Assembly (NCBI GenBank): GCA_002354055.1
Contig: DEKW01000006.1
Span: forward strand, 1,864-65,863
Reading direction: 5' to 3'
Source: Bacteroidales bacterium UBA2712
GTDB taxonomy: Bacteria > Bacteroidota > Bacteroidia > Bacteroidales > Paludibacteraceae
Length of the DNA stretch: 64,000 bases
Below the pieces are notes generated by a model. That model had not been told where the DNA came from. It made no database searches and was given only the letters and a program-made list of their open reading frames with translations. Of the stretch, positions 11,551-62,982 are shown piece by piece. Position 1 is the first letter of the stretch; every line of letters starts with the position of its first letter. Position numbers and translations under genes: made by a program.

Positions 11551-11552
11551 AC

Positions 11553-13493
11553 TTATTTTTTCTCCTCGCTTACGGTCAACTCATCATGGATCATACGATG
11601 AATATATTGCTGGATATAAGCTTTCAGGTAGTCCTCTATGGGCGCTATCCGCTCCGGGGAGATAGTCTTTGCCAGATTGTTCTTGATATATCGGTCATTA
11701 CGATAGTCATAAACTCCGGTTATGTTCTCACCGTCAAACTGCAGCAGCAAGCTGTCCGAGAAGATCTGATAGACCGGCGCATTGTAGCATACGGCGTAGG
11801 GGTGTTTCTTCTTTTTGGTCAGCGCATTCTCGCCAAAGGCAAAATACGGTTCGTCGTAACCCAACCATCCCATGACGGACGGCATGATATCCGTTTGACT
11901 AATAACATCTTCTCGAAGCTCCGGCATTAACTGCGGGTGATAGAACGCAATAGGAATCTCGTATAAACCGCGGGAATTGGTATATTCCGGCAGACTCAGT
12001 TCATTCGTATGGTCAGCCATGATCACAAAGAGCGTATGCTCGAACCAAGGCTGCTTGCTCACGTTCTCAAAGAACCGCCGCAGGGCATGATCGGCATAGC
12101 CCAACGGTTCGTGGATAGGCAGATTACCTTTCGGGAAAGAATCTTTATACTGCGAAGGCACCTTAAACGGATGATGGCTCGAAGCGGTGAAGACCGCCGT
12201 CATGAACGGTTCTTGCATCGTGCTCATCGTATTGGCATAATATTGCAGGAACGGTTCGTCCCAGATAGCCCAAGTGCCGTCATACTGCGACTCGTCATTA
12301 AACTCCGTCATGCCGTAGTACGCACCGAATCCCGCCGAACGGGCGTATGCCTGAAATCCCATGCTTCCGTTGGGGGCACCATGGAAGAATGCCGTGGTGT
12401 AGCCTTTCTTGCCTAACCGCTCTGCAATGGAAGACACCTCGTTGGTCGAATAGGGGCTTACGATGTACGGCTCAATGAGCATCGGGATAGATGACAGCAC
12501 CGAGGGCATGGCATCTACGCTTTTACGCCCCGAAGCATAGGAGTAGCGGAATGTCACGCTCTGTGCCAGCAGGCTGTCCAAGAACGGCGTGTACCCCGCG
12601 TAACCCGGTATATCTTTGTTGAAGAATCCTATGTACTCTTTGCTGCACGACTCCCAGATGATCACTACCACGTTGTCCGGCCGCATCTTATCGCTCTCCG
12701 CCGGATGGATCGGACTCATGTGTCTCTCTACTTCGTCGGCAGGGAAATAGTTCTTCTCCACGTACGGGGCGCTCTCAATCGTCTTCATGAGCGAGAAAGG
12801 CGTATTCAGCACCAACGCACTCTCCCGCGGCGCATTGGTATATTGCAAGGCATTGCTGAGTGTGATCGGGCGGGTGTATGCGCCAAAACCGCCACGGATA
12901 CCGATGATAGAGAAATAGACGGCGGTAACGAAAACCAATGCCTCTACAGGATAATAGACATACGGTTTCACACGCGGCAGCGCAAACGTCCTGCGGGTGC
13001 AATAGAAGAAGGTCAATAGCACGGCGATACCCATCAGGACGACATACCAGTATTCGACGATGCCGTTAGCAAGGATGATACCGATGTTATCTTCATTCGA
13101 CAACTCCGTGAAGGACGCACAGGTAGCGCGGCGATCCGTAAAACGGATATAGACACTGTCCGCGGCATCCACAATCATGCCGATGGCATTTGGCACCCAG
13201 TACAACCAGAGTAAGACCTTCTGATAGACCGTATTCTCACGCCATGCAGCGGGGAAGGGCAGAAGCGAACCGATGATGTACAGCGAACTGAGATACAGGA
13301 TAGCCGTCAGGTCAAACCGTGTACCACCTAATAGGATCTCTACCAGATGCTGCGTGTCCATGTTGGGGAAAATACTCCGATCCATGTAGTAGCAAGAAAG
13401 GCGCAGGATGGAGTACAACACCATCACCAACGCGATATTACACGCTACGACGATCAAGGGGTGTTCCCAAAATGCTTGTAGTCGGTTCTTCAT
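11553..13493 (-). CDS. LTA-synthase / sulfatase-family membrane protein (second paralogue)
   Basis: N-terminal TM bundle followed by a sulfatase domain (VVIIWESCSKE, SSHHPF, IMADH). Same architecture as 4070..5878. Confidence 0.8.
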   Translation of the reverse strand: MKNRLQAFWEHPLIVVACNIALVMVLYSILRLSCYYMDRSIFPNMDTQHLVEILLGGTRFDLTAILYLSSLYIIGSLLPFPAAWRENTVYQKVLLWLYWVPNAIGMIVDAADSVYIRFTDRRATCASFTELSNEDNIGIILANGIVEYWYVVLMGIAVLLTFFYCTRRTFALPRVKPYVYYPVEALVFVTAVYFSIIGIRGGFGAYTRPITLSNALQYTNAPRESALVLNTPFSLMKTIESAPYVEKNYFPADEVERHMSPIHPAESDKMRPDNVVVIIWESCSKEYIGFFNKDIPGYAGYTPFLDSLLAQSVTFRYSYASGRKSVDAMPSVLSSIPMLIEPYIVSPYSTNEVSSIAERLGKKGYTTAFFHGAPNGSMGFQAYARSAGFGAYYGMTEFNDESQYDGTWAIWDEPFLQYYANTMSTMQEPFMTAVFTASSHHPFKVPSQYKDSFPKGNLPIHEPLGYADHALRRFFENVSKQPWFEHTLFVIMADHTNELSLPEYTNSRGLYEIPIAFYHPQLMPELREDVISQTDIMPSVMGWLGYDEPYFAFGENALTKKKKHPYAVCYNAPVYQIFSDSLLLQFDGENITGVYDYRNDRYIKNNLAKTISPERIAPIEDYLKAYIQQYIHRMIHDELTVSEEKK

Positions 13494-13500
13494 GATGCGG

Positions 13501-14247
13501 TTATTCCTCTACTCTCGTTTTGCGTTTTAACTCAAAGTCACGGCCCAGGTAGTTCTGTCTCACTACCGGATTGGCCGCTAACTCCTCCGGTGTACCGTGG
13601 AAGAGGATCTTTCCTTCAAACAGCAGGTACGCCCGGTCGGTGATCATCAGTGTCTCATCGACGTTATGGTCGGTGATGAGGATGCCGATGTTCTTGTCTT
13701 TGAGCCGCCAAACGACGTCCTGGATCTCCTGCACAGCGATCGGATCAACACCTGCGAAAGGTTCATCCAACATGACGAATTTCGGCTCGATTGCCAGACA
13801 CCGCGCGATCTCCGTACGCCGTCTCTCGCCACCGCTCAAGCGGTCACCGAGGTTCTTGCGTACGTGCGCTAGGTTAAACTCCTTGATCAGGCTCTCTAAC
13901 TTCTCTTCCTGATAGTCCTTGCTGAAATCCGTCAACTCCAGCACCGAGCGGATATTATCCTCTACGGTCATCTTGCGGAAGACACTCGCCTCCTGCGGTA
14001 GGTAGCCGATACCCATCTTCGCCCGTTTGTACATCGGGTACGAAGTGATATCCTGATCGTTGAGGAATATCTTACCGTTATTGGCGGCCACCAGACCGGT
14101 CGTCATGTAGAAAGTCGTGGTCTTGCCGGCTCCGTTTGGACCCAGCAGACCCACTATCTCCCCTTGCTCCAGCTGGATAGAGACGTCATCGACCACGGTT
14201 CTCTTGCCGTATTTCTTAACCAGATGTTCTGTACGTAATTTATCCAT
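13501..14247 (-). CDS. lptB: LPS export ABC transporter ATP-binding protein LptB
   Basis: Near-collinear match to the LptB hallmark sequence ([20 protein letters not shown]...[14 protein letters not shown]...LSGGERRR). Confidence 0.9.
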
Positions 14248-14336: not shown

Positions 14337-15098
14337 TTATGCGATTTCTACCATCACCGGGCAGTGGTCGCTATGCACAGCGTCGGTCAGGATCTTTCCG
14401 TCTTTCAGTCTCCCGCGCAGACTCTCGCTGACCCATAGATAGTCGATACGCCATCCTACGTTTCTTGCTCTTGCACCTGCTCGCCACGACCACCAGCTAT
14501 ACCGCTCGGCACTCTGGTCAAAGACGCGGAAGGAGTCCACCAGACCGCTGGCTTCCCATCTGTCCATCCACTCGCGCTCTTCGGGTAAGAAACCCGACAC
14601 GCCGATCTGCCGCTCGGGGTGATTGATATCAATCGGCTTATGGCAGATATTATAATCGCCGCAGATGACGATGTTCGGTCGCTCTTTACGCAACTCATTG
14701 ACCCAGACGAGGAAATCCTCGAGAAACTCCATCTTAAACTCCTGACGGATATCTCCTGTTGTGCCGCTGGGGATATAGGCATCGACGATGGTCAAATCGC
14801 CGAAATCCACACGCAGTACGCGTCCCTCTCGGTCGTATTTTGGGTTGCTCATACCGACCACCACTTTGTCCGGCTCTTGCTTCGTGAAGATACACACGCC
14901 CGAGTAGCCTTTCTTTTCCGCGGAGTGGATATAACTATGATACCCCAACTCTTGAAACGCCATCACGTCAATCTGTTCCGGCTGCGCTTTGCTTTCCTGG
15001 ATGCAGAAGACATCAGGACTCTCACTCTGTAACCACTCCAGCAACCCTTTGCCGATTGCCGAACGGATACCGTTTAAATTATAACTGATGATTTTCAT
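14337..15098 (-). CDS. xth: Exodeoxyribonuclease III
   Basis: [14 protein letters not shown]...QESK...GDYNICH...SDHCPV are typical ExoIII/EEP motifs. 253 aa. Confidence 0.9.
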
Positions 15099-16549
15099 AA
15101 CACTCTGCCTAAAATATCATATTCTTTCTCTCCGCGCAGAATCACCACGCGGCCGTCGCGCAGTATTTTCCGTGGTTTGGAAAGGGCCCCCGTTTCCTGC
15201 GTATCCAGTTCGGTCGGTGTACCGCCGCCGTTCACTTTGAAGGTGATGAGGCCGTTTGCCTCGGCAATGTCTGTCACCTGATACTCAGTTACCCGAGTAA
15301 ACGAGGTACTGCCGGTAGGATACGCGTCACCGGACTTGCCGTACCAACTGGCGTTAGGATAGGCAGGGGCTGATCCGTCTGCCTCAAGGAGGTCGATACA
15401 TATAGCGCTAGCGCTATAATTAACTCTATTGTATTTCCATTTTTGGGAATCGTACGTCACTTTGGTGACAAGCATACCATGCCCGGGGAGGTATGCATCC
15501 CAACCTGCCTTCTGACGGTTCTCCAAGAGATAGAACACATTAGGATTCGGTGAGAGAATATCGGCTATCGCACTACCGTTAGCCGTTATATAAGCAGCGC
15601 TCTGTGTGGTGTTGATATCGCCTAATTGTACATCGTATGCTTGGTTTAGCAGCATCGGTTCGAGCCATCCCATAAACCACCGCTCATAGGCGGAATAAGC
15701 AGCAGGAGTCTTACCGTCGTTGCCGTAGCAATAATCCATAATATCCCAGTATCCGGAGGTCTTATGAGTGGCATTATCGTTGGTGGAATATACATCCGGC
15801 AAGCCCATGCCGTGACCGAACTCATGGCAAGCCAAACCTACACCGGCTATGACAGCAGTGGATGCATCACTGAGGAAACCGTCTAATTCGCTGCTTACTT
15901 CGTAATCGTTAATTGTCAGACCGTCAAAGACTGTCGGTTGTCCATGACTGCCGGCTTCGGCAATGGTCCAGTAATGCGGCCAAATCAAAGCATTCGGATT
16001 GTCGACCCACGTCGGACTATCGCTTGCAGGAGGACCGGCAAAGAGGCAATACATCAGATCGACTTTGTCGTCTCCATCCAGATTATACAGCGTGAAATCC
16101 AACGAGTCGTCCATCAGCGCGCAAGCTTCAAGAACTAATTTGGATGCGCAATCACTATATTGAGTGGAAGTCCCACTCACCGTCACCGGTCCGTAGATAT
16201 CGAACTGCGGATTATATTCTCCGTAGGACTGATCATAGAAATACTGCCTTACCGAGCCCGTAGCACCATCTTTGATGTAGTTGACGGCGTTGAACATCGA
16301 GTCCACATCGGCGCGGTCGATGCGATAACTCATGTCGGGATAATTCACCAAGATAACCGGCACGCGCAGAAAGGTCTTTCGTACGCCTACAGCCTGTTCG
16401 CGCATCGGGGCTTGCATGCCGGAAGCCTTTTGCATCAACCGCACTTGGCGGTTATAACCCACAGTATCTTCCCCACTGCGCGGAGGCACGATAGCCCACG
16501 CGGAGATGCTTAGACTGAATACTATCAAAAGGAAAAATGCTTTTCTCAT
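15095..16549 (-). CDS. Secreted zinc metalloprotease, M6 (immune inhibitor A)-like, with the short shared C-terminal motif
   Basis: Signal peptide, [11 protein letters not shown] zincin motif resembling InhA/M6, and C-terminus [25 protein letters not shown]. Confidence 0.7.
15098..15172 (-). other. Coding segment for the shared C-terminal motif ([25 protein letters not shown])
   Basis: Direct alignment by eye with four other C-termini in this window. Confidence 0.85.
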
Positions 16550-34082: not shown

Positions 34083-34129
34083 AGATATTCAATAATGTTT
34101 AAAGTTTAATGTTTAAAGAATTAGAGATT

Positions 34130-43100: not shown

Positions 43101-44551
43101 TCATTCTGCGTGCGGGTGGTATCACCACCAGTGGCATCGGTTCTTCGCCTTCGGCAACGTACGAGTACGTTTATCCGCAAGTAGAATTAGGCGGAACGCT
43201 AACCAGTACAAAGACGGATATCAAGTACGAATACATCACCGACTATGACCATTGGTATCAGCTCTGTTTACCGTTCAATGCTACGCTGAGCAGTATTCAT
43301 TACCCGCAAGAGTATTACGGCGATAATGTGACAGCCTCCAATACCGGCAGTTGGGTTATCAAACGCTACGCCGGTGAGGTTCGTGCGACGGGTAACTACG
43401 ACGCATGGAAAGATATAGAAACCGAAAGTGCAACCTCTGTAACCGCCGGTCATGGATATATCTATTGGGGCGCTCCGAAGAAAGTATCTGTAGGAGGTGC
43501 CGCTAAACAACGTCAGCAATGGGGTATCCAGCGTATCACCATGCCTATTACGGCAACGGCAGCTACTACTGCGGAGACGGCGGACAAGAACATATCCGTT
43601 GATTCCTATAGTGAAGTGGCGACAAGCGATAAACCGAATGACCAAGGATGGAACCTCGTCGGTAACCCGTATATGGTGGACTTGACCGACTTGAGCAGCA
43701 ACAGTATGATTGCCGGTCAGTTGGTTCATACAGAGATTGTTCCTTGGGACGGCAAATGGAGGAATAACGGTGATGGTGTACGTTATGTAACGATCCCGGA
43801 TAATCACTTTGATTCCTATGTGGCAAAGACGGCTTCTGTGGCATCCGGAGAAGGAGACTTTATGCCGGGTCGTGCATTCTTCGTACAGATTGCAGGAGGC
43901 GCAAGCACGTTGACCTTCGCTGCCGCTAACCGCGCATCGTTGACACCTGCACGCTTTGCACAAACCGCTCAATCGGTGGATATAGAAACAGGTATCGTCA
44001 TGAGCGATGAGTCCAAACACGATGAAGTGAACTTCTGGATCAAGGAAGATAAGACGGCAGAGTACGAATACAATGCTGATTATCCGAAGACGCCGAACAA
44101 TACGAACTTCAATATCTATGGCGTCCACAGTCATGGAGACCTGAGCTGGATTGCTATCAGTCCGGAGATCGCAGAGGGTTCAATGGCTATCGGTTATCAA
44201 GTACCGACGGCAGGAGAATACCGATTGAGTTTGAGCGAGACGTATGTTTCGGATAAGATAGACCAACTGCTCGTCACCGACCATGAGATGAGTCCGGAGA
44301 TTACGACAAACCTGTTAACCGAAGATTATGTCTTCCATGTTAATCAGGCAGAGACGAACAATACTCGTTTCACCGTTTCTATCCATCTGGCTCCGCAGAC
44401 ACCGACAGATATCGGAAATGTGCCGAGCGAAGGAATGAATGCGGATCATGCGAAACCGCAGAAGTTCATCTATCACGACAAGTTGTACATCTTGCGAAAC
44501 GGCGTGATTTATGACGCAACGGGTAAAAAAGTGAAAGGAGGCCTGAAATGA
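34130..44551 (+). CDS. Giant (about 3473 aa) secreted surface protein / putative adhesin
   Basis: Signal peptide MKTNILTNIRVWAIMMVCLTVLGVGNAWG. Flg_new-type units are present (e.g. HTVTFNAEGG...GWEFYGWAT, YQVDFALNGG...GYTFLGWSD...LTAQW, YNITYKDQG...GYRFDGWYT...LYAKW). A Big_2 domain lies at about 35950-36215 (…LVTAVSAGSATITATT…). A novel ~150-aa module recurs. The C-terminal motif QKFIYHDKLYILRNGVIYDATGKKV is present. I chose the ATG at 34130. Confidence 0.85.
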   Translation: MKTNILTNIRVWAIMMVCLTVLGVGNAWGAVVSGTTYNTNSGNTPTGWTISGGTGTGGTYIGLTYDDKYIQTDEFCVSSFSSITLSARKYGGPSDAEALITVSWWVGGVETVLGTVAPTGTSLSNYTISSPASVSANSEGYVKISCKSSASGKGSGVGAVTISYTAGTPTPHTVTFNAEGGTCGTSSLTGTSVTLPAATGCPSEGWEFYGWATARCASSTPTAPTIVGKAGDTYKPAADIELHAVYATGEYTKITSTGAITSGGKYIIAGEYSGDNYVMTNTTTTDAYGTWLVGTVISEDPTNKYHAAKINAAWLCTITATSDKYYIQNASGGWIDTYYQSSDWYNHTPQDTYDKYTIDFSAGDGTCTINNSYGTKSYLTLFTDGTFGPNDDGYALYLYKQTTTPAYWSDPPCCSNKVAVSYNSAGSTHVSAMTFSAASIATCGGASTRQVTVSVTPISGYLFKAGDELTWTKSSGTIPAAPTLVSGPTLNAGKYEFVYEFAQNDNGAGTFAATASTLINYRTVCCTEYDIALNNSGSATGGTFSASKARACEGNEVTLTATPDACYVFGSWTIKKHSDNSDVTTSVLAGNTLTMPDYAVDVYATFTSKTVSALSLSMTGGHQNLDIGETNQLLVSYTPADAICDNAIDTWSSSNSLILDVNSSGLVTAVSAGSATITATTEGGVSNTYTITVNSPACDSWFMHHWNNSTNGDECFYQYSGTDWRTNNISLPSSSSEEKFNVNNAAGNPDAKKKDVEFNTLGFADIQRGGNSCGSNPYPGQNAYGKMGIYTNSGDNNRFVAFYPDKYMVTYGKEGQAWSTLTFSNTTGYEYESPVFQVPSGYKNDNTYKYYVGINNSSDAILFVTGKSSTDAMNGVSGLSSSDMGGKWGKWHIYSNSCANNWYCEFIRYYQVDFALNGGEGSIAPRYGKTTTPYVTFNTSEITPPTKSGYTFLGWSDGVNTYAPSGATVTIDGDKTLTAQWAANHTLSYNYNGGDGSSCVGGTKYTGESFTACSSAGDKEGHTFTGWLGSNSVSYTAGSSYSMPDADLTLTAQWNPDEYNITYKDQGDAAYSGNKTDGRPTGNPATHTYGSATALVDGVKAGYRFDGWYTNSTCTEGPVTSIGATAKTADFTLYAKWTQVWTISWKIWNNAESRYDEYAGDGTHTTEVVAGGTISKIPTNPADNALSSCASKFMGWSETCLGSDVGQSAPGDLFTTTPVGSITADKTYYAVYASVDDPESWTKTALGSVTAGTYVLLDANDYAFNGTINNSGHGEITESAFSFSAGVATSAPEGICEMEFQAVSGGFKMYNPKTERYLYATAASSGKLAWAVSDDDYWYLNNSNWTYSATYSGNHPIVRTYNNLMRSYAPSTTNGIALVVAKKTPGTWKDYVTSCCGTAAVTNGGYTNVTGSGSTMSAKVTWTDAANTNRYRVVCEDLSIDAISTNKYYTTAGVMTSCTDYTFNVYAAPEGGCQSAPLEITVSPVEAARTVTFNYNGSGQATGSFTTDCTHSSTNLPTPDAYAGHRFDGWWTLSSGGSSVGAAGAEYTPTASIEIFAHWIAIADLTYDGDVTGTCTGTSSTDVGSSVTACTPASRDHYTFDYWIRSDNSAHVNAGATFTMPASALTLTAHWTADSYTINYYDQGGSAYSGSNSGSLPSTHSYGIASILPNGVKEGYRFDGWFTSSACTGDPITSIASDAEGPFILYAKWTASHTFTFSKNGVVDGTLTLGQVEGGNVIMPNTTVDCGLWTTFEGWVIGDVAETTTEPATIYKPGDIYVAGNSDQEFKAVYSKHEGDASVYYEKVTSGPKSGDYILVSSAKSDVYYTTTGWNSGSSIYSTAAITLSLEGTISSASATSAGANTFTIHSGHNGANVGKFAMYDGTKYMESGSSITRQDGQSYSWELLDGSTKVNDKDYIPGAGAIHSTASTTYVLQLRNHSNADRFSMYANTQNLDVYLYRKKIAGTTYYTTAPGSCDVPTEITVSYNDNKAHAGDQTISGMPSGTTLTFTSYPNFVSYTIGAAPTDPTGYHFAGWNTQADGNGDDYAAGASVTTFGYRETITLYAKWERVYTVTLYDNGVERTRLTQASAGANVTLPSGNNCGVGSAFTFVGWTDSPVQLNAEPVRPNIVSGAGEWGDDELTDDITLYSVYSKSVAGCDDFAAGVSGAYKFTDKASEEYALAAGGTSSSYARGSSGDAEVFYIGYSPAKSAYTIRTSTGYLGWFGASGSEALTKGNTTPYYWNITAGTGANSGYWYFEPVGISGKQFSGNSGSKFQVHGNSTKYYIQLTKIAMTYYYNTAICGENSITFHDGGGTISGTPTMPDGASWNSGTHVLSGLDDCDKITEFPTANYDGWTFVGWSTEDYSNSGKHIADYAEENASTDEPDASIIYKTGGNPYVVRGGSIDLYPVFTRFPDNEPFDLENGGTYYMYYLDPASDDGYGAPQRRYAGEWDGTKRYKAVTNCAEATAFVFSKEGDIWHIRNVSTSKWLGGKSSDDWLIENSSLGTLTDWTITIRSGNQFNVSCQSGRQIIVYDNFFMDYASTNLDNNPGYHCVYLGSCEERIFSSEPHAVPTIDLIGSPIITSSVGQRVRATEAMTLSGSHLAGATKITLSSTNLTFATSATATPAANLEVTVTSGSVAETNIYVYYTPGVGDTSDGIESIIVTATDNGTVPAEAKANVSVRHLPADFVIAAKWGDKWYALPNTCNDSKSSTTGVVITVDNDNDPTCATAAPSTAKWGLRQTKQPARITAGYADRLTFTERGTTATADNQQALYNYNSADVYTNAQWTNYANTNPDRYEWIPVTADFKDYTLTNASESKPLILRNDGEFKAQTTNQAYNGKVRLLPATFYEEAPVQIVEWKANSVVVMYTGTETSATTKVGTNSASASQTLSTHKLTHGIYELTTGQSLASNDGKNLLLTFGSMKKVFEIPVIITGNSTAYSGHEKQDVVIVNGGKLSAAATKYSYHNIYVYGGGKLKIASETNLGVNNIILRAGGITTSGIGSSPSATYEYVYPQVELGGTLTSTKTDIKYEYITDYDHWYQLCLPFNATLSSIHYPQEYYGDNVTASNTGSWVIKRYAGEVRATGNYDAWKDIETESATSVTAGHGYIYWGAPKKVSVGGAAKQRQQWGIQRITMPITATAATTAETADKNISVDSYSEVATSDKPNDQGWNLVGNPYMVDLTDLSSNSMIAGQLVHTEIVPWDGKWRNNGDGVRYVTIPDNHFDSYVAKTASVASGEGDFMPGRAFFVQIAGGASTLTFAAANRASLTPARFAQTAQSVDIETGIVMSDESKHDEVNFWIKEDKTAEYEYNADYPKTPNNTNFNIYGVHSHGDLSWIAISPEIAEGSMAIGYQVPTAGEYRLSLSETYVSDKIDQLLVTDHEMSPEITTNLLTEDYVFHVNQAETNNTRFTVSIHLAPQTPTDIGNVPSEGMNADHAKPQKFIYHDKLYILRNGVIYDATGKKVKGGLK
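44459..44548 (+). other. Coding segment for the shared C-terminal motif (QKFIYHDKLYILRNGVIYDATGKKVKGGLK)
   Basis: Aligned by eye with four other C-termini in the window. This is the most divergent copy. Confidence 0.7.
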
Positions 44552-44934: not shown

Positions 44935-44947
44935 TAATCAATCTATC

Positions 44948-47536
44948 ATGAGAAAAATATTCATTTTGTTGGCGGCAACGATATGCGCTGTGGGTGCATA
45001 TGCCGCATCTATCACTGCTTCGGACGTGGATTTCGGAATAGTAAGTATCAAAGGGCAGAGTTCCGTAACGGCTACCGAAGAAATCCCTGTTTCGTGGAAC
45101 GGGCTGAGTAATCAAGGCTATTATATCTATGCGGAAATTACTTCCGGAGATGATAATTTCTTCATCAGCGGAGAGAGTTCCTATTACATGGGTTATGGAG
45201 CAAGCATGACCTATTCTACTACCTTTACGATTGGCTACTATGCTGAGACCGCGGGTTCCTTTACCGGTACGCTCCGTTTCTATAGTTACGACATCAATTA
45301 TAATGAGGTGGAGAAGATAGTCAACCTCAGTGTTGTTGTCAGTTCGGATGCTATAGTGGCCAACACCACTCCGTACGTGCGCATCAACTCTACCAGTGAG
45401 TTACACGAAGGCGATACTGTTGTGTTTGTGAATGAGGCAGCCGGAGCAGTCAGCGGTCCGCTGAACGGCACTTATCTGACGGCGATCACCGAAGGTGTGA
45501 CCATCAATGCCACTGCCGGAACAGCAGAGATGCCGGAAGGCGTAAGGGCATTTAAGATGCATAAATACAGCGGCAACTGGCAGTTCCTCTTCATCGAAGA
45601 TGAGACGACCGCCTTGCTCTTGGATTATGTATCGAATAATGCCAAGGGTGCTTTTGCAACAGTTTATGCCGCCGGGCAGACGGTTAAGACATGGGAGATC
45701 AGTATCAGCAACGGCGAGGCAGCAGTCTTCCGTCCCAACGATGCGGATCCTGCTTACCCGGTTCGGTTTAACAGCGACCGCTTTAAACCCTATAAGACCG
45801 AAGCTACCGGCACTTCGTTCGCGCTCTACAAGAAAGCCGGAGAAGCACAAGAAGTAAGCAGCTCTTTAGAGATCGAGGCTATCCAGTTTGGCGATGTGGA
45901 GTTGGGCGAGAGCGCTGAGGTGACGGTCAATTATACTGCCGAGAACCTGACGGATGATATCATCTGGGAGGTGGAAGGAACGGACGCTGCGTTGTTCAGC
46001 GTAACGGAGCAAGGCGACCGTACCGGCGGAACAGTGACCATCACTTATCTCGGTACCGGCACGCAGCTTGGTACGGTAGATGCGCATCTGAGTTACTTGA
46101 CGCAAGATATCCATCTGGAGATAATGGAAGGTACCGCGCCCATCACCATCAATCTCATACCGACGACTACCAAACTGACGAATCTGGCATTTGTGGGTGC
46201 TCCTTCCTCCATCGACCAGGGACAGTCCATCGACCTCAGTTCGTATATCGTCTATACGCCGAATGACGCGGCAGATAAGTCTTTGGTATGGAGCGTTGAT
46301 CATACGTATCAAGGTGAAGTTAGTGAAGCAGGTGTGCTGACTGCCAAGCATGTAGGCGGTACCGTGACGGTGACTGCGACCTCGGTGCGCGTGCCGAGCG
46401 TGAGCGCCAGCCATACCCTGACCATCACCGAACCGGTCGTCACGGATTTCACGCTCTCGCACAGCGAGATGACGATGCACAAAGGCGATACGCAGACGCT
46501 ATATGTGACGGCTATTGTGCCGGATTATGCAAGCGTGAGTCCTGCTTTCTCCAGCAATAACACCGCCGTAGCGACCATCAGTAACAGAGGTCTGGTGACG
46601 GCAAGAGGAATCGGTGAGGCGGTTATCACGGCTACTATCGGCAGCGTGGAACGGATTTGTACGGTACATGTGCAGCCGGTGGATGTAACCAGCGTCAGCT
46701 TTGATCCTGCTACCGTGAGTCTGACGGTGGGCTCGTACCTGCAGCTGAATCCGGTCGTGCTGCCTGCGCAAGCCAAGGACGAATACCCCATGACGTATGT
46801 CTCCGACAACGAGGCTGCGGCTACTGTGAGCGAGAGCGGTCTGGTTACCGGCATCGCAGAAGGCCAAGCCGTCATCACCGCTACTATCGGCGGCATGAGC
46901 GGGCAGATAACGGTAAACGTAGTTGCGGCATCGATGTTCACCAAAGTGACGGACGCTTCTACGCTGGCGGCGAAAGATACGATCGTTCTGGCTACTATTT
47001 ATAACAACAGCGGCGTGATTGCCGGTCCGCGCGGTACAGACAATGCCGGAAAGAAGAAACTGAGTGTTCTGACCGAAGGTGTAACCGTTACAGAGACAGA
47101 GGCATATGCTGATGAGGCTTGCCGTTTGGTACTGGGAACGGAGAAGAACAAAGAAGGCTTCACGCTGACAATCGTAGGCGGAAAGACGATAGCCGTAACC
47201 TCTACAGGCAACGATATCGTTGATGCAAACACGCAGAATTGCAAGTTCTGGGAGTTCGTAGAAGATGGCAATAACGGCTATTTCGTACGCAACCTCGGTA
47301 ACACGAACGCGATGTTCAAATACCACTCGGGTAATGCGGCTATCAAGCCATACAAGCTCAATACCACCGGTGCTGTGTACGTTTATGCCTATGTGCGCAA
47401 GTACGTAGATCCGATAGTGACCGGCATGGATGAGACGCAGGCTCCTTCGATCGAAAGCCGGAAGATTCTTCGCGACGGACAGGTGCTGATTCTCCGCAAC
47501 GGCGAGGTCTATACCGCCACCGGAATGAAGTTATAA
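44948..47536 (+). CDS. Secreted surface protein with three Big_2 (bacterial Ig-like group 2) domains, two copies of the novel module and the shared C-terminal motif
   Basis: Signal peptide MRKIFILLAATICAVGAYA. Big_2 signatures: ...GVLTAKHVGGTVTVTATS, ...GLVTARGIGEAVITATIG, ...GLVTGIAEGQAVITATIGG. C-terminus RKILRDGQVLILRNGEVYTATGMKL. Confidence 0.8.
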   Translation: MRKIFILLAATICAVGAYAASITASDVDFGIVSIKGQSSVTATEEIPVSWNGLSNQGYYIYAEITSGDDNFFISGESSYYMGYGASMTYSTTFTIGYYAETAGSFTGTLRFYSYDINYNEVEKIVNLSVVVSSDAIVANTTPYVRINSTSELHEGDTVVFVNEAAGAVSGPLNGTYLTAITEGVTINATAGTAEMPEGVRAFKMHKYSGNWQFLFIEDETTALLLDYVSNNAKGAFATVYAAGQTVKTWEISISNGEAAVFRPNDADPAYPVRFNSDRFKPYKTEATGTSFALYKKAGEAQEVSSSLEIEAIQFGDVELGESAEVTVNYTAENLTDDIIWEVEGTDAALFSVTEQGDRTGGTVTITYLGTGTQLGTVDAHLSYLTQDIHLEIMEGTAPITINLIPTTTKLTNLAFVGAPSSIDQGQSIDLSSYIVYTPNDAADKSLVWSVDHTYQGEVSEAGVLTAKHVGGTVTVTATSVRVPSVSASHTLTITEPVVTDFTLSHSEMTMHKGDTQTLYVTAIVPDYASVSPAFSSNNTAVATISNRGLVTARGIGEAVITATIGSVERICTVHVQPVDVTSVSFDPATVSLTVGSYLQLNPVVLPAQAKDEYPMTYVSDNEAAATVSESGLVTGIAEGQAVITATIGGMSGQITVNVVAASMFTKVTDASTLAAKDTIVLATIYNNSGVIAGPRGTDNAGKKKLSVLTEGVTVTETEAYADEACRLVLGTEKNKEGFTLTIVGGKTIAVTSTGNDIVDANTQNCKFWEFVEDGNNGYFVRNLGNTNAMFKYHSGNAAIKPYKLNTTGAVYVYAYVRKYVDPIVTGMDETQAPSIESRKILRDGQVLILRNGEVYTATGMKL
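47459..47533 (+). other. Coding segment for the shared C-terminal motif (RKILRDGQVLILRNGEVYTATGMKL)
   Basis: Direct alignment by eye. Confidence 0.85.
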
Positions 47537-54021: not shown

Positions 54022-54676
54022 AGATGATTTTCATTTGCTCGTCCGGCGTCATGTCGCTGTTATCTACGACGATGGCATCTTCGGCCTGCCGCAACGGGCT
54101 CTCCGCACGATGCGTATCGCGGTAGTCGCGGTCGTTGACATCCGCCAATACCTCTTCATAGACGGGCTTCTCGCCTTTGGCTACCAGCTCGTCGTACCGC
54201 CGTTGCGCGCGAACCTCCGGCCGAGCCGTGAGGAACAACTTGAGATCCGCCTTCGGGAAGACTACCGTACCGATGTCGCGACCGTCCATGACGATGCTCT
54301 GGTTAGCACCCATCGCCTGTTGCTGGGCAACGAGAAAAGCACGCACCTCTTTGATCTGCGAGATCTCCGAAGCGCGGTTGCCGACCTCGAGTGTCCGTAT
54401 CTGACTCTCTACATCTTCGCCGTTCAGCGTCACGTGCTGCGCATCGCCAACCCGCACAAAACCTACCTTGATCTTGGGCAAGAGCGCAATGATCTCCTCG
54501 TCGCTCAGTCTTTCGACTTTCGACTTTCGACTTTCGGCTAATACGTATAACGCAATAGCGCGATACATGGCGCCGGTATCTACATAGGTCGCATGCGCAT
54601 GCTTCGCCAGCGCCTTGGCTATCGTCGATTTCCCGCACGACGAATATCCGTCTATAGCAACAATGATCTTTTTCAT
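53999..54676 (-). CDS. cmk: Cytidylate kinase
   Basis: IVAIDGYSSCGKST P-loop, ...VDTGAMYR..., ...VMDGRDIGTVVFP... 225 aa. It overlaps the ispH start by 23 nt. Confidence 0.9.
   Translation of the reverse strand: MKKIIVAIDGYSSCGKSTIAKALAKHAHATYVDTGAMYRAIALYVLAESRKSKVERLSDEEIIALLPKIKVGFVRVGDAQHVTLNGEDVESQIRTLEVGNRASEISQIKEVRAFLVAQQQAMGANQSIVMDGRDIGTVVFPKADLKLFLTARPEVRAQRRYDELVAKGEKPVYEEVLADVNDRDYRDTHRAESPLRQAEDAIVVDNSDMTPDEQMKIIYDLYDRL
54504..54538. repeat. Tandem heptamer array (CTCAGTC TTTCGAC TTTCGAC TTTCGAC TTTCGGC)
   Basis: Read directly. On the minus strand it encodes AESRKSKVERL in Cmk. Confidence 0.9.
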
Positions 54677-55770
54677 TTTAGTAACGAGTTTATATCTAAT
54701 GTCAGTCCGACCTGGTACGAGAAGTTGGACTTGGTCATCTGGCTGATGGCGAAATCCACATGCGCCTGTTTGATTCGTACGCCGAGGCCCAACGCGAATC
54801 CAGCTAACGACCGCTGATCGGCGAGGTTCAACTCCGCGCGGCGGCGGTGGTTATATGAGAAAGCGATGTAGAACCGCTCGCGTTTATCTACTACCTCTAT
54901 TGTCCATATCGTGTGTCGGAACAGCATGTCGTACCATTTGACGTTATGGGGGATGATATCTCCGGTCGTCACGTTCTTGTCCATACCCGTCCATTCGTAG
55001 TTCAGGTACCAGGTCTGCAGGTTATGCGCCTGCAGGTGAAACCGCAACGGTGCGTGCTTCACTCGGTAAGTCAGACCCAACTGCAGGTTCAGCGGCAGCA
55101 TCTCGTGGTTCGAACCGCCTTCCTCCGAGTAAAAACCCTTCAACTGCCATCCTATGTTCTGCAGCACCAGCCCCATCTGGAAGGTCGAGTCGGGGCTTTG
55201 GAAATGCGCTCCTACGTCCGCGCCTAACGCAAACGAACTATAACTCTCGTAGATCGAATAGACCGGCTTGAGTGTCACGCCGACCTTGAACATCCGTCCT
55301 AACTGGCGCGCGTACATCACGTCTATCAAGATGTCCCGAGCGCCAAACGAACCACCGGTCTTGTTGCCGTCTTTGTCGGCGTAGTACATCTTGCCGTAGT
55401 CCAAGTAATGGATACCCACTGCGAAATAGTTCGGCTTGTCGGGCTCACCCTCTGGCGGCTTCTCGATCTTCGACCGTCCGAAATTATGCCCGTATAACAC
55501 GCTGCCGAACATCGTTCCCGGCAGGTAGTAGCTGTAGTTGAGTTGCAGCATCATGTGGCTGTTAGCATGCAGCAACGCCGGGTTGCACATGCCCATCGCG
55601 ATATCCCCGTCGCTGAGCGAGACGTTCGACCCGCCCAAGGCGTTGATGCGCGACGATACCGGCAGACTCATAAATGAGAACACCGACCGCCCTGCATTCG
55701 ACACCTGACCAAAGGAACAAAGGGACAAAGTACAAAGTACAAGGGTTACTATTTTTTTTCTTATAGCCAC
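54673..55770 (-). CDS. porQ: Type IX secretion system membrane protein PorQ-like
   Basis: Signal peptide followed by ...SVFSFMSLPVSSRINALGGSNVSL.DGDI....NPALL, which is characteristic of the PorQ family. About 340-aa beta-barrel-like body. GTG start at 55770. Adjacent to and upstream of cmk. Confidence 0.65.
   Translation of the reverse strand: MAIRKKIVTLVLCTLSLCSFGQVSNAGRSVFSFMSLPVSSRINALGGSNVSLSDGDIAMGMCNPALLHANSHMMLQLNYSYYLPGTMFGSVLYGHNFGRSKIEKPPEGEPDKPNYFAVGIHYLDYGKMYYADKDGNKTGGSFGARDILIDVMYARQLGRMFKVGVTLKPVYSIYESYSSFALGADVGAHFQSPDSTFQMGLVLQNIGWQLKGFYSEEGGSNHEMLPLNLQLGLTYRVKHAPLRFHLQAHNLQTWYLNYEWTGMDKNVTTGDIIPHNVKWYDMLFRHTIWTIEVVDKRERFYIAFSYNHRRRAELNLADQRSLAGFALGLGVRIKQAHVDFAISQMTKSNFSYQVGLTLDINSLLK
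55709..55745. repeat. Tandem 7-8-nt array (NACAAAG-type, about 5 copies)
   Basis: CCAAAGGAACAAAGGGACAAAGTACAAAGTACAAGGG, read directly. On the minus strand it encodes the PorQ signal-peptide core LVLCTLSLCSF. Confidence 0.8.
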
Positions 55771-60299: not shown

Positions 60300-61336
60300 T
60301 GAAGAAGATCCTTCTGATAGTATGCGTGGCGGCTGCGTGTTTGGCGCAAGCCGCCACGGCGTTTCCAAACCTCGGTAATGCCCGTATAGTCGTTCTGGCG
60401 AATAACCTCCAGAACTACTATATCAACTACGACGAGTCCGACCGGCCTTCCTATGACGATGAACAAGGTCTCGCGCTCAAGACTCAACGGATAGCCGATA
60501 TGATGATTGCCTCCAACGCAGACATCTTTGCTTTCTGCGAACTGGAAGCCAAACCTGTGACCCTCGATTATCTGGTGACAGCGCTGAATACGCAGTTGGG
60601 GCAGGAGGTGTACGCCGCGGTCTCGGACGGCATCAATGTGCAAACCGATTCGTATGACAATGCCATCAAGTCCGGCTTCGTATATAAGGTAGCGACGGTG
60701 GCACCGTACGGCTCTGACTACGCGACTACGAACGTCACCTACTACAAGAACGTCATGCGTATTCAAGCCTGGACAGAACTGGCTACCGGCGAGCGGTTCA
60801 CGCTCTCGATGAACCATTTTAAGGCCAAGTCGGACGCTGCGTCACAAGCCAAACGTGTAGATAACGCCAACTGGCTTCTCTCCGGACTGAATACGTCCTA
60901 CAAAGTGCAGGATACGGACATTCTTATCATGGGAGACCTTAATGCCGAGATGGATGAGGATTGTATTGCCGTGATCGAGGATGGAGGCTACACAGAGCAA
61001 CTCCTTCGCTTTGATGCGAACGCCTATTCATATATCTATCAGGGTTCCCATGAGTTAATTGATCACGCTTTTGCTAACAGCACTATGGCGGATCAGATTA
61101 CCGGCGCGGCTGTGTGGCATACCAACACCTCGGTCTCATACAGCAACCGTTATTCGGACCATGATGCCGTGGTAGTGGGGTTGCGTTTAGGAGAGGATCA
61201 AGGAGAAAGTCTTGACCAAACTCCCTTCCCTTCAGGGGAGGGCCGGGGTGAGGCTTACAAAGAAATCCGCCACGGACAAATCATTATTATCCGCGGCGGA
61301 GTGGAATACACCATTACGGGGCAGCGTCTTTACTAA
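60299..61336 (+). CDS. Secreted endonuclease/exonuclease/phosphatase (EEP) family protein with the shared C-terminal motif
   Basis: Signal peptide [21 protein letters not shown] motifs ...FAFCELE..., ...GDLNA..., ...DHA..., ...SDHDAV. C-terminus YKEIRHGQIIIIRGGVEYTITGQRLY. The ATG overlaps the sdhB stop (TAATG). Confidence 0.75.
   Translation: MKKILLIVCVAAACLAQAATAFPNLGNARIVVLANNLQNYYINYDESDRPSYDDEQGLALKTQRIADMMIASNADIFAFCELEAKPVTLDYLVTALNTQLGQEVYAAVSDGINVQTDSYDNAIKSGFVYKVATVAPYGSDYATTNVTYYKNVMRIQAWTELATGERFTLSMNHFKAKSDAASQAKRVDNANWLLSGLNTSYKVQDTDILIMGDLNAEMDEDCIAVIEDGGYTEQLLRFDANAYSYIYQGSHELIDHAFANSTMADQITGAAVWHTNTSVSYSNRYSDHDAVVVGLRLGEDQGESLDQTPFPSGEGRGEAYKEIRHGQIIIIRGGVEYTITGQRLY
61256..61333 (+). 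other. Coding segment for the shared C-terminal motif (YKEIRHGQIIIIRGGVEYTITGQRLY)
   Basis: Direct alignment by eye. Confidence 0.8.
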
Positions 61337-62982
61337 TTGACGCGCCTGCCGGTAATATCGAAGGTCTTATTGTCGCGAAGGATGAGCAATCGTCCTTCGC
61401 GAATTATTTTACGCGCTGCCGGTTTGGAAACTACCGGGCTAATACTCTCCGTCGGACTATTGCCCTCAATCTGGAAGCATACCTGACTGATACGCGTGCC
61501 TGTACCGGCAGTACGTTGGATAGTGAAGGACTTGGCTCCTTCCGGTGCAGTCAACCGTACCATTTCTTTGGCCGCGCTGGAGATAGTATAGGTGGTGTTA
61601 GCGTTTCCGTTCCAGTGGTAGGCGATGGTGTTCTTGTTTTCTGCCCAATTCGGGATAGTGACATCGAACTCTACCGCTTCTATAGACGCAGCATAAGCAG
61701 AGAAATCAAAGATGATATAATCCGCATTCTTACCCATGTTGAAGTAGCCGGCCTCCCAGGTACTGCCGGTGTTATTGACCGTGATGGCCAATTGGGCAAA
61801 GTCCGTGGGGATTCCTCCGTTCTCCACACTCGGTTCTGCGCCTTTCGCTAAGCTGACACAGCAGTCTCCATCAACGATGATAGGGTCGCCTCCTTCGCCT
61901 CCGCCTTCACCGCCGCCTTCGCCGCCACCTTCTCCACCGCCGCCTTCACCGCTATCGCAGGAAGAGGACACTTCGGCGCTGCTCGTGACGCTCAGCGTGG
62001 CACCTGCGCCACAGGTGCTGTTAACCACATAATTCTTTGCCGTTGCCGCACTTAATGCGTCATACGTGTATGTTGGAGCCGACACACTTCCGCTGTTGCT
62101 CGGTAAATTACCCGCGCAGTTGACGAACTTGCAGGAGTTGGTAGAGCCGCCATAGACACTCCAAATCTTGGACGCTTTATTTGCTTTGCCGGCAAACGTA
62201 CAGCCTTCAAAATAGCATTTTGCATTCTCCGGACCAACGTAATAGTCGGCTACGGAGCTGTTCCAATAGCAATTCAAAAAATGCAACTCGCAGTTGCGGC
62301 ATCTCGTCATACGCTGTTTGCAGCCCTCGTCCCACCAGCAATAGCCGTAGGTGATATTATATGTGCCATCAGCCGGTTTGTCGCTACTGCCGGAGCCCAC
62401 AAGGTTGGAGAAACGATGGTCGTCAGAACCTCCGGATCCGCCGGCTTTGGGAGTTTTCAGATAGCGGAAACGACACCAGGTGACAGAGATATTATCGGAT
62501 TTGCCTTTAATATCGAAATTACCATCCATGCCATCTTGGAAATCGCAGTGATCTACCCACACGTTCTTCGCACCATCCAAGGTCAGCAAATCCTTGCCGT
62601 CGCAGTCATACGCGCCCGGACCTTCAAAGGTAATATTGCGCAGAATAATATTCGAGCCTTTGAGGTACAAAATACCCGATTTGTCTTGCGTCTGGCTATT
62701 GGAGATCAAGCGTTTGCCGGGCAATGCCATAATGGTCAGATTCCATTTGTCAGTACTGATCTGATCATCAATGGTGATGTTTTGCGTGATAATAATCACT
62801 TTGTTACTGCTCTTAAGGGCATTCTTGAAATCAGAAGCAGAGCTAACCAAAGTAGGTGTGACATTTCCGCCACCGGTCACATTCGTACCGGCGTAGCCCC
62901 ATGACGAACTTGCGCAATAATTGACTGCGCTTACGGATGAAATCATCCCAAACAGACTAAAAACAAGTAATACCTTTTTCAT
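61333..62982 (-). CDS. Secreted pectate-lyase-like right-handed beta-helix protein, then a (GGGE)n linker, a C-terminal beta-sandwich-like domain and the shared C-terminal motif
   Basis: Signal peptide. ...NVWVDHCDFQDGMDGNFDIKG.SDNISVTWCRF... resembles the PL1 vWiDH motif. SGEGGGGEGGGEGGGEGGGEGG linker. C-terminus RKIIREGRLLILRDNKTFDITGRRVN. Confidence 0.65.
   Translation of the reverse strand: MKKVLLVFSLFGMISSVSAVNYCASSSWGYAGTNVTGGGNVTPTLVSSASDFKNALKSSNKVIIITQNITIDDQISTDKWNLTIMALPGKRLISNSQTQDKSGILYLKGSNIILRNITFEGPGAYDCDGKDLLTLDGAKNVWVDHCDFQDGMDGNFDIKGKSDNISVTWCRFRYLKTPKAGGSGGSDDHRFSNLVGSGSSDKPADGTYNITYGYCWWDEGCKQRMTRCRNCELHFLNCYWNSSVADYYVGPENAKCYFEGCTFAGKANKASKIWSVYGGSTNSCKFVNCAGNLPSNSGSVSAPTYTYDALSAATAKNYVVNSTCGAGATLSVTSSAEVSSSCDSGEGGGGEGGGEGGGEGGGEGGDPIIVDGDCCVSLAKGAEPSVENGGIPTDFAQLAITVNNTGSTWEAGYFNMGKNADYIIFDFSAYAASIEAVEFDVTIPNWAENKNTIAYHWNGNANTTYTISSAAKEMVRLTAPEGAKSFTIQRTAGTGTRISQVCFQIEGNSPTESISPVVSKPAARKIIREGRLLILRDNKTFDITGRRVN
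61336..61413 (-). other. Coding segment for the shared C-terminal motif (RKIIREGRLLILRDNKTFDITGRRVN)
   Basis: Direct alignment by eye. Confidence 0.85.
61886..61950. repeat. 12-nt-period in-frame repeat encoding a (GGGE)n linker
   Basis: GCCTCCGCCTTCACCGCCGCCTTCGCCGCCACCTTCTCCACCGCCGCCTTCACC, read directly. Confidence 0.85.

Follow-up and report, generated by a model that had tools for sequence, protein, structure and literature searches.

A short C-terminal tail shared by unrelated secreted proteins of Paludibacteraceae is a candidate condensed, type-A-derived T9SS signal

Exactly five open reading frames (ORFs) of the 64,000-nucleotide stretch of DNA analyzed here (the window) end in the pattern K-[IF]-[IL]-R-x-G-x-h-h-I-h-R-x-G-x-x-Y-x-h-x-G-x-x-h, where h denotes a hydrophobic residue. 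The carriers are mutually unrelated, comprising an M6 protease, a Listeria-Bacteroides-repeat/Big_2 adhesin, a Big_2 protein, an EEP nuclease and a pectate-lyase-fold protein, and by inspection all five present Sec-type N-terminal signal peptides. A first-pass annotation of the window had placed a shared tail on five unrelated proteins with signal peptides and had pointed to a PorQ-like T9SS gene in the same window. Translation locates the tails at the coordinates listed below, each followed directly by a stop codon, and the porQ assignment scores above the equivalog cut-off.

15098..15211, minus strand: putative C-terminal signal of the M6 metalloprotease (gene 15095-16549; translation)
15098-15172, minus strand: 25-aa predicted folded tail of the M6 metalloprotease, preceded by a 13-residue linker after TPT
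44408..44548, plus strand: putative C-terminal signal of the 3480-aa adhesin (gene 34109-44551; translation and HMM match)
44459-44548, plus strand: variant tail QKFIYHDKLYILRNGVIYDATGKKVKGGLK of the 3480-aa adhesin, preceded by DIGNVPSEGMNADHAKP after TPT
47423..47533, plus strand: putative C-terminal signal of the Big_2 protein (gene 44891-47536; translation)
47459-47533, plus strand: tail RKILRDGQVLILRNGEVYTATGMKL of the Big_2 protein, preceded by GMDETQAPSIES after IVT
54673..55770, minus strand: porQ (NCBIfam equivalog NF033711, T9SS_PorQ; 299.5 bits versus a cut-off of 220, E = 2.8e-89)
61208..61333, plus strand: putative C-terminal signal of the ExeM/NucH-like EEP nuclease (gene 60299-61336; translation)
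61256-61333, plus strand: tail YKEIRHGQIIIIRGGVEYTITGQRLY of the EEP nuclease, preceded by the linker SLDQTPFPSGEGRGEA (cleavage motif uncertain)
61336..61449, minus strand: putative C-terminal signal of the pectate-lyase-fold protein (gene 61333-62982; translation)
61336-61413, minus strand: tail RKIIREGRLLILRDNKTFDITGRRVN of the pectate-lyase-fold protein, preceded by ESISPVVSKPAA after SPT

The individual tails are retained beyond the window. A word-index search with the tail alignment yielded 36 candidates, all of them short ORF fragments, which added sequences to the set but do not serve as a measure of distribution. The variant tail of the adhesin recurs in metagenome fragments (P0017, P0018), that of the Big_2 protein is kept in its orthologues (L008, L053, P0001, P0002), and that of the EEP nuclease in orthologue fragments (P0005, P0009, P0010, P0014-P0016). 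Among the 120 best pectate-lyase homologues listed (66-98% identical), 117 match the tail pattern and the other three are slight variants.

To describe the tail as a profile, we used a hidden Markov model (HMM) trained on 66 sequences, the five window tails among them. When run on all 1433 six-frame segments of the window, it returned exactly these five matches (38.7-49.3 bits), compared to 5.9 bits for the next best segment and 10.5 bits for the best of 20 shuffles. Since the window tails formed part of the training set, independent related loci carry more weight. In 118 related genome loci the HMM produced 151 matches, all of them within 8 residues of a stop codon and none internal, and all 128 regex matches (128/128) lay 23-29 aa from the stop. 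A profile search of 1.84 billion proteins matched the tail in 13,141 clusters. Its best 150 hits included 147 newly retrieved sequences, and in 144 of these the anchor K was located 22-30 aa from the end. At the DNA level, column identity among the five window tails is only ~60%, indicating conservation of the protein sequence instead of recent DNA duplication; an origin by DNA cassette or gene conversion is ruled out on the same grounds.

Signal-peptide-like N-termini, as called by a hydrophobicity heuristic, are present in 72 of 86 complete carriers (84%) versus 138 of 617 other ORFs. The first-pass annotation had described the motif as the extreme C-terminus, suggested scanning related genomes with an HMM of the tails, and reasoned that internal or cytoplasmic occurrences would speak against a tag; the scan of the window and related loci bears out the terminal position, and the N-termini of the carriers point to export. 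The Pfam content of the carriers includes BspA leucine-rich repeats (LRR), M6, S8 and M4 peptidases, Big_2, InlB-B/Listeria-Bacteroides repeats and pectate lyase, as well as amylase, Endonuclease_1, EEP and CotH, and judged by these domains the carriers resemble typical T9SS cargo. The hosts are, with few exceptions, Paludibacteraceae or uncultured gut MAGs of Bacteroidales. Counts in unselected flanks give 30 tails to 2 classic type-A C-terminal domains (CTDs), which makes the tail proteins the main candidate T9SS cargo of these organisms if the system is active there. A literature search with the tail peptide strings found them in no paper.

To explore the fold of the tail, we relied on AF2 predictions, which yield a confident three-stranded β-meander after a flexible, lower-confidence linker. 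In the M6 protease the predicted strands are RKILR, RVVILR and KEY, with block-mean pLDDT values of 93-96 over residues 31-53; in a second AF2 model the block-mean values over the tail are 79-89. The single β-hairpin first proposed for the motif thus gives way to a meander. The tail is amphipathic and β-structured, with no hydrophobic helix, and presents no match to an NCBIfam sorting tag, which sets it apart from transmembrane sorting tags such as PEP-CTERM, LPXTG and GlyGly-CTERM. A Foldseek search of the AF2 model against the PDB gave nothing at E <= 0.001, the best matches being unrelated hairpins, and the only PDB match of the tail profile at the sequence level was L31, a chance match with E = 0.8.

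The tail was also compared with known CTD models. Neither TIGR04183, PF18962 nor the type B (TIGR04131) and type C (ChiA-like) models matched the 28-, 50- or 100-aa C-termini at E <= 10, the type B and type C models were likewise without tail matches in whole-NCBIfam scans, and NCBIfam and Pfam scans of the full proteins and of their 28-100-aa C-termini placed no model of any kind on the tail. This negative result weighs little, because the same models miss the classic short CTDs of the clade, the only match being that of L109 to PF18962 (E = 0.35). The initial description of a non-canonical tag much shorter than the ~80-aa CTD is nevertheless consistent with a 25-aa core that no T9SS CTD model matches; the TIGR04183 and TIGR04131 comparisons suggested there found nothing, and the ordinary CTD score that might have emerged over some 80 residues did not appear in stretches of 100, 50 or 28 aa.

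Like the canonical type-A CTD (TIGR04183/PF18962), the tail is C-terminal on Sec-dependent proteins of a T9SS-bearing member of the Bacteroidota. The two differ in size and fold, since the canonical CTD is a 70-100-aa, seven-stranded Ig-like β-sandwich and the tail a 25-aa, three-stranded meander (AF2). They also appear to differ in motif order: every described type-A CTD presents motifs B, D and E in that order, whereas the tail has a D-like element followed by a B-like element and lacks a separate motif E strand with its conserved Lys. Profile comparisons nevertheless detect local similarity of the tail to classic motif B (hhalign E 7.6e-4; P 5e-6) and to motif D/E (P 6e-5), both over 12-14 columns, for which these statistics are poorly calibrated, and the matches of an HMM of the classic CTDs are dominated by tail-bearing ORFs. 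Structures of the RgpB CTD (5AG8, 5HFS) offer a reference for both elements. The Lβ3β4 loop (motif B), which is essential in RgpB, reads IFDMNGRRV and resembles tail endings such as TFDITGRRV and EYDILGRVL. The RgpB β6-β7 hairpin, whose aligned part is GVYAVRIATEGKTY, is locally similar to GQLLILR-DGKTYTVTGQEVK of the tail; the last seven residues of RgpB are TEKVIVK.

Upstream of the tail, at ~12-14 residues, many carriers present P-T/[GA]-[IV]-[ED], a motif reported as the cleavage consensus of PorU in Prevotella intermedia and here a putative site; by the description in PMC11969387, the CTD cleavage consensus of that species is PT/GI, with Ile at +2. In the logo anchored on this site, T occupies -1 in 79% of cases, G/A +1 in 67%, I/V +2 in 80% and E/D +3 in 79%. 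Of 145 tails, 44 have the strict form T-[GA]-[IVL]-[ED], usually 12-14 aa upstream, compared to none of 145 control windows. Only ~30-55% of tails show a clear PT/G-I-E motif, and in roughly half it is absent or degenerate. Measured from the cleavage motif to the C-terminus, the putative signal has a median length of 38 aa (range 27-47; 37-47 for the five in the window), and one 38-aa example ends in ...PTGIENVQSDKVQCTKILRDGQIYILRGDKTYTVTGQEVK. The estimate of ~25 aa in the first-pass annotation holds for the predicted folded core, and the functional unit probably takes in a further 12-17 linker residues upstream of it.

PorQ is an outer-membrane component of the T9SS attachment complex, and its gene in the window indicates that the organism has a T9SS. 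It is the only component seen there, PorV, PorU, Sov and PorK-N being absent from the 64 kb, and it is physically unlinked to any single tail gene. The clade has classic type-A CTDs as well (L041, L109, L121), and the one in L121 starts with GT/GIEDV, the same motif that is found upstream of the tails. Furthermore, the positional M6 orthologue P0073 ends, where the tail would be, in a short type-A CTD of the classic kind that comprises motifs B, D and E, within a conserved MlaE-ABC-M6-xth-ABC context; the 90%-identity cluster of P0073 includes a protein labelled Paludibacteraceae by NCBI. A profile of the classic CTDs has three PDB matches, all weak, led by the arabinanase 4kca (E 0.08) and including the RgpB CTD (5hfs, 7pq4; E ~0.3). 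No second swap was present among the 120 best pectate-lyase homologues listed, since all 120 are close orthologues that keep the tail. Forms reading ...NGQIYIRKGNKTYNLFGHETTL may be intermediates between classic CTD and tail.

Taken together, these data make it quite probable that the tail is the folded core of a minimal, rearranged and lineage-specific T9SS signal derived from type A. The upstream cleavage-site motif shared with type-A CTDs, the syntenic orthologue in which a classic short type-A CTD takes the place of the tail and the local profile similarity to motifs B and D/E all argue for such a derivation, and we regard the tag as probably a condensed type-A CTD and not a new system, on the strength of these sequence comparisons. 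The label "non-canonical" is right, and "unrelated to T9SS" would not be. The sorting or anchoring role with a possible T9SS link that was proposed at the outset draws support from the C-terminal position, the carriers, PorQ and the CTD swap.

Under this model, carriers would cross the inner membrane by means of their Sec signal peptides, and the last ~25 residues would fold in the periplasm into a small three-stranded β-meander. Strand 1, (R/Q)K-I-L-R, would be joined by a D/N-G turn to strand 2, Q-h-h-I-h-R, and this by a G/D-G/D-K turn to strand 3, x-Y-[TDN]-h-x-G-x-x-[VLI]-(K/R). The meander would thereby present type-A-like recognition elements: a G-x-h-h-I-h-R strand similar to motif D, a Y-[DT]-h-x-G-[basic/Q]-x-V loop similar to motif B, and a basic C-terminus. 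These would be recognized by the Sov/SprA translocon and the PorV shuttle, and the PorU sortase of the PorU-PorV-PorQ-PorZ attachment complex would cut the linker at the cell surface within P-T/[GA]-[IV]-[ED], 12-14 residues upstream of the tail, whereupon the cargo would be either released or joined to surface glycan. We infer T9SS dependence, PorV binding, cleavage and anchoring for the tail proteins.

The nearest natural counterparts are the short T9SS CTDs of P. intermedia, which Veith et al. 2013 were the first to note and which Ye et al. describe (Open Biol 2025; PMC11969387). According to the latter paper, they form a predicted single three-stranded β-sheet, and their cleavage and glycan attachment were shown by mass spectrometry. 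Our comparison rests on that description together with the classic short CTDs found here. On this basis, both signals are C-terminal, follow a flexible linker, are predicted to form a three-stranded β-sheet and share the PT/GI consensus with Ile at +2, putative in the tails; the cargo is similar as well, with LRR proteins, proteases, pectin-lyase-fold proteins and adhesins (PMC11969387). Library models built for long CTDs largely miss short ones, as scans of the clade's own classic short CTDs show, and miss the tails likewise. The P. intermedia CTDs are described as 43-55 aa long, compared to a median of 38 aa (range 27-47) for the tag, and as ordered from motif B (Y..G) through a gap of 1-6 aa to motif D (GxY-I) and a basic motif E (K). 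In the tag, by contrast, the D-like G-Q-h-h-I-h-R strand comes first, L, V or I stands in place of the Tyr of GxY, the extreme C-terminus is formed by the B-like Y-[DT]-h-x-G-x-x-V, and a separate motif E strand is lacking. In size, the natural tail is comparable to the minimal HBP35 signal of P. gingivalis: according to work cited in PMC11969387 and PMC10202324, the last 22 residues of HBP35, comprising the last two strands, are enough for GFP to be secreted by the T9SS. By those accounts the HBP35 signal is an engineered truncation that keeps motifs D and E, whereas the tail is natural, dominant in its clade and ends in a motif-B-like element.

Other explanations of the tail can be weighed against these results. 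A separate, lineage-specific sorting or anchoring system that is merely CTD-like and exports independently of the Sov translocon, for instance through a dedicated outer-membrane receptor using β-strand augmentation (a PorV/PorQ paralogue or an unrelated barrel), would fit the lack of T9SS CTD model matches, the motif order different from type A and the confinement of a very abundant tag to one clade. We judge it unlikely, given that the upstream cleavage motif is that of type-A CTDs, that a syntenic orthologue has a classic type-A CTD where the tag would be, that the cargo repertoire is typical of T9SS, and that no candidate alternative machinery was seen beside the five genes. The small β-meander with its conserved aromatic residue and Gly, and weak, non-significant Foldseek matches that included glucansucrase repeat regions, could also point to a functional module kept on the mature protein, such as a glycan- or cell-surface-binding β-hairpin of the choline/glucan-binding kind, or an oligomerization or dockerin-like peg. 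Such a module appears improbable for a tail that is always single-copy and always at the extreme C-terminus, that occurs on enzymes, adhesins and nucleases alike, that follows a sortase-type cleavage motif and that is replaced by a known cleavable CTD in one orthologue; choline/glucan-binding repeats (PF01473, CW_binding_1) and dockerins are rejected by the lack of any such Pfam match at E <= 10.

Chance, low complexity, an assembly or annotation artefact, or a recently spread DNA cassette would have in its favor the shortness of the motif and nothing else. The HMM scores (39-49 bits, with no shuffle above 10.5 bits), the 13,141 clusters retrieved from an independent library, the ~60% of identical DNA columns among the five tails and the conservation among the pectate-lyase homologues listed rule this reading out, leaving it practically no probability. 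A more far-reaching version of the type-A-derived signal, tentative and on balance doubtful, would place the tag in a class of its own among T9SS signals, as a naturally occurring minimal CTD of 25 residues produced when a short type-A CTD was rearranged (permutation or fusion). The β6-like strand would then come first, the essential Lβ3β4/motif-B loop would have become the C-terminus, and the basic K-I-L-R strand would stand in for motif E, and the geometry in which the whole docks into PorV, or into a lineage-specific PorV/PorQ paralogue, would be unlike that of all CTDs studied. If true, the tag would rank as the smallest T9SS signal in nature and as the principal one in an entire family of gut and rumen Bacteroidales.

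Should the condensed type-A-derived tag indeed be a T9SS signal, cargo prediction with TIGR04183/PF18962 would overlook nearly everything secreted by a Bacteroidales family that is widespread in rumen and gut; a paper on the rumen T9SS of Ca. Paraporphyromonas used TIGR04183 only. The tag also bears on how small a structure the T9SS translocon, PorV and PorU can still recognize, a question approached to date only through engineered truncations and the P. intermedia CTDs of 43-55 aa. Furthermore, a natural signal of ~38 aa with a defined cleavage motif would provide a compact secretion and surface-display tag for Bacteroidota engineering, and an HMM from the tail alignment would immediately improve rumen metagenome annotation. 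The NCBI labels of tail carriers give the name of the catalytic domain only, or "hypothetical protein".

Five C-terminal tails had been recorded by the first-pass annotation, and translation of the window reproduces each of them exactly, with a stop codon directly after each. Family scans of the five proteins bear out that the carriers are unrelated, and Sec-type signal peptides are present on all five as judged by inspection. The tail carriers are:

15095-16549, minus strand: M6 metalloprotease
34109-44551, plus strand: 3480-aa adhesin with Listeria-Bacteroides/InlB-B repeats and Big_2
44891-47536, plus strand: Big_2 protein
60299-61336, plus strand: ExeM/NucH-like EEP nuclease
61333-62982, minus strand: pectate-lyase-fold protein

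A tail HMM run on every six-frame segment of the window yields exactly five matches (38.7-49.3 bits), with a runner-up at 5.9 bits and a maximum of 10.5 bits across 20 shuffled controls; the window tails were included in the training set of this HMM, so independent loci weigh more than these scores. Only ~60% of DNA columns are common to the five tails, which argues that their conservation is selective and acts on the protein.

The tail core spans ~25 aa and reads, from sequence logos, [RQ]-K-[IV]-[LI]-R-[DN]-G-Q-h-h-I-[LI]-R-[GD]-[GD]-K-x-Y-[TND]-h-x-G-x-x-[VLI]-[KR] (h, hydrophobic). AF2 predictions from two different alignments agree on a fold of three short β-strands, at RKILR, xhhIhR and KxY, to which the final tail residue adds one further bridge; tail residues have block-mean pLDDT values of 93-96 (first model) and 79-89 (second model), and the 25-30 residues ahead of it are predicted to be unstructured (59-76). 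This linker carries a second conserved element, P-x-T-[PA]-T/[GA]-[IV]-[ED]-N-[VI], usually 12-14 residues upstream of the invariant K. Of 145 non-redundant tails, 44 contain this motif in its strict form, T-[GA]-[IVL]-[ED], compared with 0/145 control windows taken farther upstream. The motif matches the cleavage-site consensus PT/GI, with Ile at +2, reported for P. intermedia CTDs (PMC11969387). The full signal element, measured from the T/[GA] site, has a median length of 38 aa (range 27-47), with 38, 47, 37, ~42 and 38 aa in the window proteins.

One genome per GTDB species was scanned for K-I-L-R-[DN]-G-x-h-h-I-h-R with a degenerate DNA pattern, which returned at least 118 loci; 115 of these carry the label Paludibacteraceae, Ca. 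Colicola or (uncultured) Bacteroidales and derive from rumen, horse, deer and human gut MAGs. One further locus (L032, CAVHGD010000016.1), labelled Dialister sp. CAG:486, encodes a tail protein 37-39% identical to one in a Paludibacteraceae MAG (L058) and is probably a Bacteroidales contig that was wrongly binned into a Firmicutes MAG. Two of the 120 matches listed, L063 and L103 (a Heimdallarchaeota MAG), lie off the C-terminus and were rejected as chance DNA matches. The matches listed suggest that the tag is absent from other taxa.

All 128 relaxed-regex matches sit 23-29 aa from the stop codon. An HMM whose training set was limited to metagenome proteins and the window identified 151 tail-bearing ORFs among the 1529 ORFs of these loci, with every match <=8 aa from the C-terminus and internal occurrences in 0/151, upholding the proposal that the motif forms the extreme C-terminus. 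Flanks outside the pattern selection hold ~30 tail ORFs and only 2 classic CTDs, the type-A T9SS domains with motifs B, D and E in that order. Searched with a tail profile, a library of 1.84 billion representative proteins yielded 13,141 clusters at E <= 1e-3; among the best 150 of these, 147 sequences were newly retrieved, and 144 of the 147 have the anchor K 22-30 aa from the end. The UBA3717 MAG contig DFHS01000017 carries M6 and Big_2 orthologues ~32 kb apart, the same as in the window, which places the window in this group.

Signal-peptide-like N-termini, scored by a heuristic, are found in 72 of 86 complete carriers, compared to 138 of 617 other ORFs. BspA LRR is present in 14 of 78 carriers, and other carrier domains include M6, S8 and M4 peptidases, Big_2, InlB-B repeats, pectate lyase, amylase, Endonuclease_1, EEP and CotH, a repertoire similar to that of P. 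intermedia T9SS cargo given by Ye et al. (PMC11969387). The C-terminal 22 residues of HBP35 are enough for T9SS export of GFP, as cited in PMC11969387 and PMC10202324. The PorQ-like T9SS gene noted earlier is indeed encoded in the window (NF033711, 299.5 bits against a cut-off of 220) and is the only T9SS machinery component seen in these 64 kb.

The tails match no NCBIfam or Pfam library model, in agreement with the initial view that they are not ordinary T9SS CTDs; these models likewise miss the classic short CTDs of the clade, and the missing matches therefore carry little weight. Among 120 M6 homologues the majority retain the tail; in ten, its place is taken by a classic short CTD of 45-55 aa, in which motif B reads hYTLTGxxV, motif D HGVFIV and motif E NGKTYKIxK. 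One of the ten, P0073, shares the MlaE-ABC-M6-xth-ABC gene order of the window and is therefore a positional orthologue of the window M6 gene; its 90%-identity cluster contains a protein labelled Paludibacteraceae by NCBI. A profile of these CTDs gave three matches in the PDB, all weak: the C-terminus of an arabinanase (4kca, E 0.08) and the RgpB CTD (7pq4, 5hfs, E ~0.3), the latter alignment spanning motifs B and D. In the related locus L121, the syntenic M6 gene (3072-6223, plus strand) bears a classic short CTD, and the CTD of the tandem M6 paralogue that follows begins with GT/GIEDV, the same motif as in the tail linker. Minus-strand ORFs of 1047 and 1187 aa in loci L109 and L041 also end in classic type-A CTDs. 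Some lineages bear such CTDs, so the family contains both tail and classic forms.

The classic CTDs of L109 and L041 rank 1 and 3 in the match list of a classic-CTD HMM, which consists mostly of tail-bearing ORFs and places their terminal (K)xYTLTGQEVK on motif B. With hhalign, the tail end again falls on motif B (E 7.6e-4; P 5e-6) and the segment hhIhR-GxKxYxI on the motif D/E hairpin IFIVRSNGKTTMI (P 6e-5), these alignments covering 12-14 columns only, so that their statistics are rough. RgpB ends in TEKVIVK, and GVYAVRIATEGKTY, the portion of its last hairpin that aligned, resembles the tail segment GQLLILR-DGKTYTVTGQEVK. The essential Lβ3β4 loop of RgpB, IFDMNGRRV (PMC11285876), likewise resembles the ends of tails, for example TFDITGRRV and EYDILGRVL. 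Judged from these alignments, the tail looks like a basic K-I-L-R strand, a motif-D-like strand and a merged strand that appears to join the start of motif E (NGKTY) to the motif B loop (Y-[DT]-x-x-G-x-x-V). Shared descent from a type-A CTD is likely, and the exact motif mapping, possible permutation included, is put forward as a hypothesis.

Chance or artefact is excluded as the source of the tail pattern. A separate sorting system would be consistent with both the absent model matches and the reversed motif order, but it leaves unexplained the common cleavage motif and the in-place exchange with the classic CTD, and we consider it unlikely. Even less probable is a binding or oligomerisation module kept on the protein, which fits poorly with the strictly single C-terminal copy, the cleavage motif and the orthologue swap.

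The tail is probably a minimal T9SS signal derived from a type-A CTD. On this reading, the Sec pathway would carry the protein into the periplasm, where the 25-aa meander would fold after export. We infer that the Sov translocon and the PorV shuttle would then recognise this meander by its G-x-h-h-I-h-R strand, its Y-[DT]-x-x-G loop and its basic residues, and that PorU would cut the linker at PT/G-I-E, the cargo being released or attached to surface glycan.

To our knowledge, short CTDs have been described in P. intermedia only. The tag dominates another family than these do, and it is shorter and differs in motif order from the 43-55-aa CTDs described there (PMC11969387). It is without a Pfam or NCBIfam model, a literature search for the tail sequence found no match, and NCBI names for the carriers give the catalytic domain only or "hypothetical protein".

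Several neighbouring features were also observed. Directly 5' of the giant adhesin, a 662-aa ORF (32094-34082, plus strand) with a hydrophobic N-terminus and without a tail has no Pfam or NCBIfam match and may be an adhesin partner. The start of a 128-aa ORF (44548-44934, plus strand) overlaps the adhesin stop; its product, without a match in the family scan, carries a signal peptide, is acidic and rich in Pro in its middle part and has at the C-terminus a hydrophobic helix with KTRKKK after it, resembling a TM-type C-terminal anchor. An N-terminal TIR domain is fused to a C-terminal FGE-sulfatase (formylglycine-generating-enzyme-like) domain at 20537-21946 (minus strand), and this fusion weakly resembles PorK/GldK-type and Thoeris/TIR defence models.

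The EEP nuclease and pectate-lyase genes are convergent, with overlapping stop codons (61333-61336), and the antisense of each of their tail-coding regions folds into a strong hairpin with a U-run after it (61266-61402, both strands). These hairpins (minus strand, 61300..61266, 14 bp, z = -3.8; plus strand, 61373..61402, 13 bp, z = -2.6) each lie just 3' of the partner gene's stop, as if the terminator of each gene sat within the tail codons of its partner. No comparable hairpin was found in the Big_2 and adhesin tail regions, and the M6 tail region shows moderate sense-strand folding (z = -2.3). Directly downstream of the M6 gene lies a glycan/LPS-type cluster (5827-14247, minus strand) encoding a Wzy_C O-antigen-ligase-like protein, GT2 glycosyltransferases, a Kelch β-propeller lipoprotein, a sulfatase-family protein and an ABC ATPase.
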